The position numbers and the translations under genes were made by a program. A stretch of DNA of 13,925 nucleotides from a virus (taxonomy: Duplodnaviria > Heunggongvirae > Uroviricota > Caudoviricetes). Location: the IMG/VR virus record IMGVR_UViG_2684623077_000006; one strand, 5' to 3'. This document shows positions 6,489 through 6,746 of the stretch, piece after piece (within the stretch, counting starts at the first letter, position 1; each line of letters starts with the position of its first letter). The notes under the pieces were generated by a model that did no database searches, was not told the DNA's origin, and saw only the letters and a list, made by a program, of their open reading frames with translations.

Positions 6489-6746
6489 ATGGTACATGAC
6501 CGCATAGCGGAAGAACTCGAGGCGAAAGGCTTTTACCGGAGAGCGTCGGCGCGATGGGGTGAAGTCATGCTACTGGTGGAGACAGACAAGGAACGGGAGC
6601 ACATCACGATGCGACGGCTGGAATGTTGCAGAAAATCGACAAGGCCAGCACTCGGGCCGGACAATTTCAGCGATATTAAAAAAGCCGCTGATCGTGTTTA
6701 TGCTGAAATGGGATTAGATAAATTAAAGGGGGAAACATGCCAGTAA
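6489..6746 (+). CDS. PerC-family-like putative transcriptional regulator (85 aa)
   Basis: MVHDRIAEELEAKGFYRRASARWGEVM resembles the PerC/Pch N-terminal signature (LE-KG-WRRAA-RW); GAGAGGG SD before ATG 6489. The upstream extension from 6369 overlaps ssb and is rejected. Confidence 0.5.
   Translation: MVHDRIAEELEAKGFYRRASARWGEVMLLVETDKEREHITMRRLECCRKSTRPALGPDNFSDIKKAADRVYAEMGLDKLKGETCQ

Follow-up and report, generated by a model that had tools for sequence, protein, structure and literature searches.

A PchE-type PerC/Pch family gene as probable accessory cargo of a capsid-forming PICI

The window, as we call the whole 13,925-nucleotide stretch of DNA analysed here, carries on its plus strand (6489..6746) a gene that our analyses confirm as a genuine member of the PerC/Pch family. 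Comparison with related islands indicates that perC is most likely optional, interchangeable cargo between the replication module and the packaging operon of a satellite, and we lean towards the view that its product is a PchE-type cargo protein which would act in trans on host regulons via H-NS-type complexes, and not on the island that carries it. That a PerC-like gene resides on a PICI is already known: the protein is in RefSeq, work on its named orthologue PchE goes back to 2004, and PerC homologues appear among the accessory genes of E. coli PICIs in reports from 2012-2018 onwards. What is modestly new is a mid-gene recombination that accompanies a motif-less tail in the window allele, together with a comparative argument against PerC as regulator of the late operon in capsid-forming PICIs (cf-PICIs). 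The useful outcome is a negative one, in that PerC appears interchangeable with ProQ/FinO-like and other genes and is probably not a capsid-operon regulator.

The island and its PerC/Pch family gene

By its gene content the window is a cf-PICI of the EcCIEDL933 / OI-51 / Sp7 type, EcCIEDL933 being the prototype (bioRxiv 10.1101/2022.09.08.507074; PMC3378721). We recognized cf-PICIs by int, alpA and primase/rep genes, by capsid, protease, portal, head-tail adaptor, HNH, TerS and TerL genes of their own, by freedom from tail and lysis genes and by a length of about 10-15 kb, and the 13.9-kb window shows this combination. Pfam matches were obtained for the integrase, AlpA, a D5-type primase, capsid, S78 protease, portal, head completion protein, connector and HNH; terS and terL were assigned from RefSeq annotation of collinear islands, and no tail or lysis ORFs were seen in the 13.9 kb. 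From the left end the window holds the integrase gene (1-1239), the AlpA gene (1562-1858), a gene for a DUF4222 protein (3460-3759, plus strand), the D5-type primase gene (3756-5504) and, after the perC unit and its last gene, orf86, genes for capsid, S78 protease, portal, head completion protein, connector, HNH, TerS and TerL in that order. The satellite location assumed in the preliminary description is borne out, since the order int-alpA-primase-ssb-...-capsid-protease-portal-HNH-terS-terL fits cf-PICIs. Sakai Sp7 and six further E. coli cf-PICIs share this order, as do collinear islands in complete E. coli genomes. Sakai Sp7, also designated CP-933C and O-island 51, is collinear with the window, and this collinearity makes the window gene the positional orthologue of pchE. 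As an observation apart, Rfam places in the left arm, on the plus strand (2809-2858 and 2926-3013), a C4 antisense RNA (RF01695, 72 bits) and its a1b1 target (RF03163, 46.8 bits, just over gathering), a P1/P7/P4-type immunity RNA module, in a region where collinear islands have Icd-like genes annotated.

The perC-like ORF starts with the ATG at 6489, stops with the TAA at 6744-6746 and encodes 85 residues. A GAGGG Shine-Dalgarno sequence lies 5 bases 5′ of the ATG, the ssb stop codon precedes it by 10 nt, the Pfam profile begins at this methionine and RefSeq takes the same start. A GTG at 6369 (125-aa ORF, or the 99-aa gene call P0001) is an alternative start that we rejected for its out-of-frame overlap with ssb.

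The preliminary description had likened the segment AEELEAKGFYRRASARWGEV, residues 7-26 of the protein, to the PerC/Pch family and had suggested a profile search. That search aligns residues 1-81 with positions 1-81 of the 90 in PF06069 (PerC) at E 2.5e-36 and 124.3 bits, about five times the gathering cut-off of 22.6 bits, and the proposed membership stands. PHROG 994 is matched at E 3.9e-37, and the protein is 100% identical to RefSeq WP_021546407.1, annotated there by PGAP as "PerC family transcriptional regulator". Pairwise BLASTP gave 47% identity to the PerC of EPEC E2348/69 plasmid pMAR2, the founding member (E 2e-25), and 74% to PchE of O157:H7 Sakai; identity to Sakai PchA was 39% in an eight-member alignment and 43% by tblastn. 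That alignment comprised EPEC PerC, PchA, a PchD-like protein, PchE and four PICI homologues, and all 13 columns invariant across these diverse members are kept in the window protein (A7, L10, E11, G14, R17, R18, A19, R22, W23, R36, R43, C46 and G75), which also has the conserved N-terminal core of the family, A..LE..G.(Y/W)RRA..RW. Taken together, the Pfam, PHROG and pairwise results put the family call far beyond chance. Searches outside the family returned little: the protein had no sequence match in the PDB at thresholds up to E 10, an Rfam search of the perC region was empty, and the PADLOC defence models matched neither the PerC-like protein nor the products of orf86, orf92 or the DUF4222 gene.

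Within the family, high identity to PchE and a place in the ssb-to-capsid interval of a cf-PICI put the protein in group 3 (PchE-type) Pch. PchE (ECs_1588, Sp7/CP-933C/OI-51) shares 74% identity over 82 aa, with 35 of residues 1-36 identical, and has the same Pfam family, the same size class (90 aa for PchE, 85 for the window protein) and the same position after orf-ssb and before the capsid operon. The two differ in the 3′ half of the gene, which in the window comes from a much more divergent lineage, and at the C terminus, where PchE ends in IWRNYPDS and the window protein has TCQ instead. They also differ downstream: Sakai pchE is followed by a separate 74-aa ORF, whereas the window perC is followed by an overlapping 86-aa ORF 41% identical to it. 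Relatives in the same Pfam family are more distant. EPEC PerC lies on a virulence plasmid and PchA in the lambdoid prophage Sp4, whereas the window gene is on a satellite; PchA has 104 aa, 19 extra C-terminal residues in comparison with the window protein; and both PerC and PchA carry a (V/I)FR(R/N)Y motif which the window protein does not. Assignment to group 1 (PchA/B/C) was considered and rejected, given a length of 85 and not ~104 aa, a satellite and not a lambdoid prophage as carrier, and 39-43% identity to PchA.

Host regulons and the ANR-like alternative

The preliminary description had raised the possibility of cross-talk with host genes, and published work on PchE agrees with it to the extent that findings with a 74%-identical protein, obtained mostly by plasmid over-expression, can be carried over to the window protein. 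Over-expressed PchE is a repressor of csgD/curli, eae and lpfA1 and a strong activator of flhDC/fliC and motility (PMC6265319, PMC7369912). Activation of ler-type promoters, for which reporter assays had been suggested at the outset, fares less well. EPEC PerC and the group 1 Pch proteins activate LEE1/ler, whereas PICI-borne PchE-type proteins are reported not to: the PerC-like proteins of EcCIEDL933 and EcCICFT073 had no effect on LEE1-lacZ according to the account of Porter 2005 given in PMC11773190, and expression of ler/espA reportedly does not require group 3 Pch (PMC6265319).

By analogy with PchE, the window protein would be made at a low level from the integrated island, and its targets would most likely be regulons of the chromosome, reached in trans, and not the island itself. 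Its likely effects would be to lower curli/csgD and other adhesins and to raise flhDC and flagella, with little or no activation of LEE1. As to mode of action, group 1 Pch relieves silencing by H-NS, StpA, Hha and YdgT and lowers H-NS binding at LEE1 (PMC4764244), an antagonism shown for group 1 Pch and not for PchE. The AlphaFold2 model of the window protein (23 homologues, mean pLDDT 81) is all-helical, with predicted helices at residues 5-13, 16-27, 33-50, 60-73 and 77-83 and block-averaged pLDDT above 90 at residues 11-50, and no helix-turn-helix or other recognizable DNA-binding fold is evident in it. Because Pch proteins relieve silencing and no DNA-binding fold was detected in this confident model, we favor a mode in which the protein may remodel H-NS/StpA/Hha silencing complexes, as opposed to classical sequence-specific activation. 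A Foldseek comparison of the model with PDB entries gave no match at E ≤ 0.001; what it returned were generic TPR/MIT-like helical hairpins at E > 2, and so no mechanism can be derived from the fold.

The most durable alternative, which we nevertheless consider unlikely, makes the protein an ANR-type small helical anti-activator that binds AraC/XylS activators and/or H-NS and represses virulence or adhesion genes. ANR proteins (Aar-type, NF033650) are likewise small and helical and linked to H-NS, and the NCBIfam ANR model shows a weak, consistent similarity to the first helical hairpin, at residues 7-49 of the window protein (E 0.0032) and in all eight of the diverse PerC-family members (best E 8.6e-4). 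The generic helical-hairpin modules returned by the fold search are compatible with this reading, as is the net published effect of PchE, which is adhesin repression. A functional parallel comes from EcCIMP1_025, a PerC-family accessory gene of the E. coli PICI EcCIMP1 (Pick et al. 2025), with which we compared the window gene by description only: it silences LEE1, as LEE1-lux, in C. rodentium, an effect for which an ANR-like role was proposed (PMC11773190). EcCIMP1 is not a capsid-forming island. EcCIMP1_025, moreover, is reported to be only about 40% identical to the PerC-like proteins of EcCIEDL933 (PchE) and EcCICFT073 (PMC11773190). The ANR score itself is 17.3 bits against a curated cut-off of 32, which leaves the window protein outside NF033650, whereas its PerC score is about five times the cut-off of its own family; ANR proteins are also shorter (54 positions in the model), and the island encodes no cognate AraC-type activator. 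These sub-threshold matches hint at distant homology and not at membership. Returning to the PchE-type reading, LEE1 repression by EcCIMP1_025 (PMC11773190) implies that direction and targets vary between PICI PerC alleles.

The DUF4222 protein encoded upstream in the same island (99 aa, Pfam E 5.3e-24) is a homologue of RgdR, 93% identical to Sakai RgdR/ECs1581, and carries the R20-G21-D22 motif needed for activation of LEE1 and type III secretion (Flockhart et al. 2012); the island thus has a second published host-regulon modulator.

The ssb-to-capsid interval and the capsid operon

Comparison of related islands shows that the content of the ssb-to-capsid interval varies. Among 13 E. coli cf-PICIs (the window and 12 further loci), perC is present in nine and absent from four. 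The SaT040 island of ST131 has no perC, although its int, alpA and rgdR products are 100% identical to those of the window. Wider samples were taken from IMG/VR as the 80 best matches for each search, near-duplicates included, with an HMM built from eight sequences and a threshold of E 1e-5; only eight of 80 such capsid-anchored loci have a PerC-family ORF in the 3.5 kb upstream of the capsid gene. Conversely, for 43 of the 80 best-matching PchE-clade genes the contig runs on downstream but no capsid gene follows. Where perC is missing, the slot between ssb and capsid is taken by a ProQ/FinO-like gene, by an orf86-family gene on its own or by reverse-strand ORFs, and it behaves like an accessory-gene hotspot as judged from these gene contents. 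This agrees with published surveys, in which perC was counted among the accessory genes of E. coli PICIs (Fillol-Salom et al., PMC6092414), PerC-family regulators were described as common in Gram-negative PICIs (Pick et al. 2025, PMC11773190), and perC and proQ were listed as accessory host-interaction genes of Enterobacter satellites (2026 survey, PMC13612085). Other slot cargo in the related cf-PICIs, at 7872-8378 (minus strand) of L010, the SaT040 locus, 1447-1917 (minus) of L016, 1138-1680 (plus) of L012 and 1151-1681 (plus) of L017, consists of ProQ/FinO-family genes and reverse-strand ORFs of ~160 aa; the reverse-strand ORF of SaT040 gave no Pfam or PADLOC match.

A detectable homologue of the perC-like gene occurs in 1088 of 5426 complete E. 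coli genomes, so that satellites would move allelic variants of a host-regulon modulator among roughly a fifth of them. The family is essentially absent from deposited phage genomes, as a tblastn search of a 50,697-record collection returned one weak match at 39% identity. A pattern scan of GTDB species representatives found two loci only (E. albertii and E. ruysiae), with back-translated patterns that are too strict for a survey.

The genes around perC form a compact unit. orf92 (5793..6071, plus strand) encodes a 92-aa protein of the function-unassigned PHROG 1231 (E 2.9e-51), a homologue of Sakai ECs1586 (89% identical). Its stop overlaps the start of ssb (6068..6478, plus strand; Pfam SSB E 4.2e-17; TIGR00621 58 bits, over cut-off), whose product is 99% identical to Sakai ECs1587. 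perC follows, and its stop is overlapped by 10 nt by the start of orf86 (6737..6997, plus strand; 86 aa, PHROG 1957, E 1e-24), which is followed in turn by an intrinsic terminator found by terminator scan at 7004..7031 on the plus strand, with a 9-bp GC-rich stem, a 3-nt loop and a U7 tail (-16.9 kcal/mol, z -2.85). In O157:H7, pchE lies on a polycistronic ECs1586-ssb-pchE mRNA with a RACE 5′ end 10 nt upstream of ECs1586 (PMC7369912). Given the overlapping or abutting ORFs, the terminator and this RACE-defined mRNA, the best explanation is that orf92, ssb, the perC-like gene and orf86 are co-transcribed and that the transcript ends at 7004-7031.

We observed separately that orf86, which has no Pfam family, is tied to the capsid operon far more consistently than perC. 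Of the 80 best-matching capsid-anchored IMG/VR loci, 67 have an orf86 homologue upstream of the capsid gene, and the window protein encoded by orf86 is 44% identical to the product of the gene directly after ssb in the perC-less SaT040 island and 41% identical to Sakai ECs1589, the 74-aa ORF noted above. For a function linked to the packaging module, orf86 is a stronger candidate than PerC.

Upstream of the capsid gene lies a conserved non-coding leader (7026-7280) with a 16-mer, a direct repeat and hairpins. The 16-mer, TTTGTAAATTATTTGT (7038-7053), occurs without mismatch in every one of the 13 E. coli cf-PICIs, the four that have no perC among them, and in 52 of the 80 best-matching IMG/VR loci, 45 of which have no perC; it is absent from non-cf loci. 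The direct repeat CGTGGTTGTTC/GTGGTTGTTC lies 3′ of it, at about 7055-7075. Further along are a 14-bp perfect hairpin at ~7153-7193 (-25 kcal/mol, z -5.6) and a hairpin (-15.4 kcal/mol, z -4.3) with a U8 tail that ends right before the capsid ATG at 7281 and whose 3′ arm holds the sole AGGA usable as capsid ribosome-binding site. No sigma-70-like promoter was found on the plus strand between 7000 and 7400, and hits in the sigma-70 scan were no more numerous than in shuffled sequence. On these features the leader is a candidate late-promoter, antitermination or translational-control region; we found no description of it in the literature searched.

The preliminary description had placed the late operon under possible control of PerC. 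In its fullest form this would make PerC the island's own late activator, switching on or antiterminating the capsid and packaging operon after induction, which we regard as very unlikely. perC does sit directly upstream of the packaging operon, and the want of a sigma-70-like promoter together with the strong leader hairpins, one of them terminator-like just before the capsid ATG, suggests that the operon probably needs some activator or antiterminator. That PerC is this factor is argued against by the retention of the same conserved capsid upstream region in many cf-PICIs from which perC is missing, the near-identical SaT040 island among them, by the PchE-clade genes that no capsid gene follows, and by the terminator at 7004-7031, which separates the perC unit from the capsid operon. 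Expression data for pchE point in the same direction: Andreozzi and Uhlich describe a low, steady expression, and the mRNA falls, rather than rises, on SOS or prophage induction (PMC6265319, PMC7369912). It is alpA, moreover, that was shown to be necessary for induction and transfer (bioRxiv 10.1101/2022.09.08.507074). PerC may be supplied in trans from another island to cf-PICIs that have none of their own; on balance, perC is probably not the switch for satellite capsid genes. With PerC as cargo, the late-operon switch is to be sought in the conserved capsid leader, in AlpA or in helper-encoded factors.

Recombination within perC

The window allele is, on comparison with its relatives, a rare mid-gene recombinant that does not have the C-terminal motif of the family. 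Many E. coli islands match the left arm, up to codon ~52 of perC, at 97% identity, and most E. coli matches to the window end at ~6647, inside the gene. Synonymous divergence rises from dS values of 0.15-0.26 in codons 1-52 to 1.2-3.5 in codons 53-79. At ≥99% identity, the 3′ half of perC together with orf86 was found in one of 5426 complete E. coli genomes, and the capsid allele of the window is near-unique in the same way. The last codons of perC, which overlap the start of orf86, encode a protein that ends in ...LDKLKGETCQ, whereas a C-terminal (I/V)(W/F)R(N/R/K)(Y/G) motif is present in the other seven members of the eight-member alignment. Among the 80 best-matching PchE-clade alleles in IMG/VR, 68 have an IWRNY-type tail, eight the short tail ...MGLSKLAE and one the tail of the window protein, from which the (I/V)(W/F)RNY motif is absent.

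Loss of this motif means that activity is possibly altered or lost, and we asked how far the window gene could be a functionally impaired recombinant, in which the 3′ end was replaced, and the motif lost, in the same exchange by which orf86 arrived, so that little or no activity is left. The abrupt end of the genomic matches, the jump in dS, the rarity of the 3′ half and the singular tail are all as expected of such an event. Other observations nonetheless count against impairment, which we regard as very unlikely. Whole-gene dN/dS is 0.33-0.38 in five of six pairwise allele comparisons, indicating that the protein is under purifying selection; across five comparisons free of indel artefact the ratio is ~0.1-0.4 over both halves and still 0.11-0.28 in the divergent 3′ half, the pair with strain 2015C-3121 being left out because an indel makes it invalid for that half. 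A protein of identical sequence is also encoded by an independent river isolate and by contigs from IMG/VR and metagenomes, the ...MGLSKLAE alleles constitute a second short-tailed class, and every invariant family residue is intact.

A final proposal, that the truncated recombinant PerC, or PerC paired with orf86, has a satellite-specific job overlooked in work on PchE, such as counter-silencing H-NS on the packaging leader of the island itself or interfering with helper-phage transcription, is the least probable that we considered, although if true it would make this "virulence regulator" family a satellite life-cycle factor first and a host regulator second.

We return to the PchE-type cargo reading with an observation on how such alleles could arise. 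The conserved N-terminal core of perC seems to be a recombination hotspot between island modules. Variation between islands is also seen on the other side of the orf92-ssb pair. The intergenic region 3′ of the primase gene (about 5505-5760) looks like the PICI replication origin, with at least 10 iteron copies of GTCTACC / GGTAGA(C/T)A in both orientations around an AT-rich core. At the same place Sakai Sp7 has GGGTTAT/ATAACCC and SB0258h1 has TGTTCACC/GGTGAACA, differences at one site that are consistent with primase/rep specificity modules having been swapped between islands.
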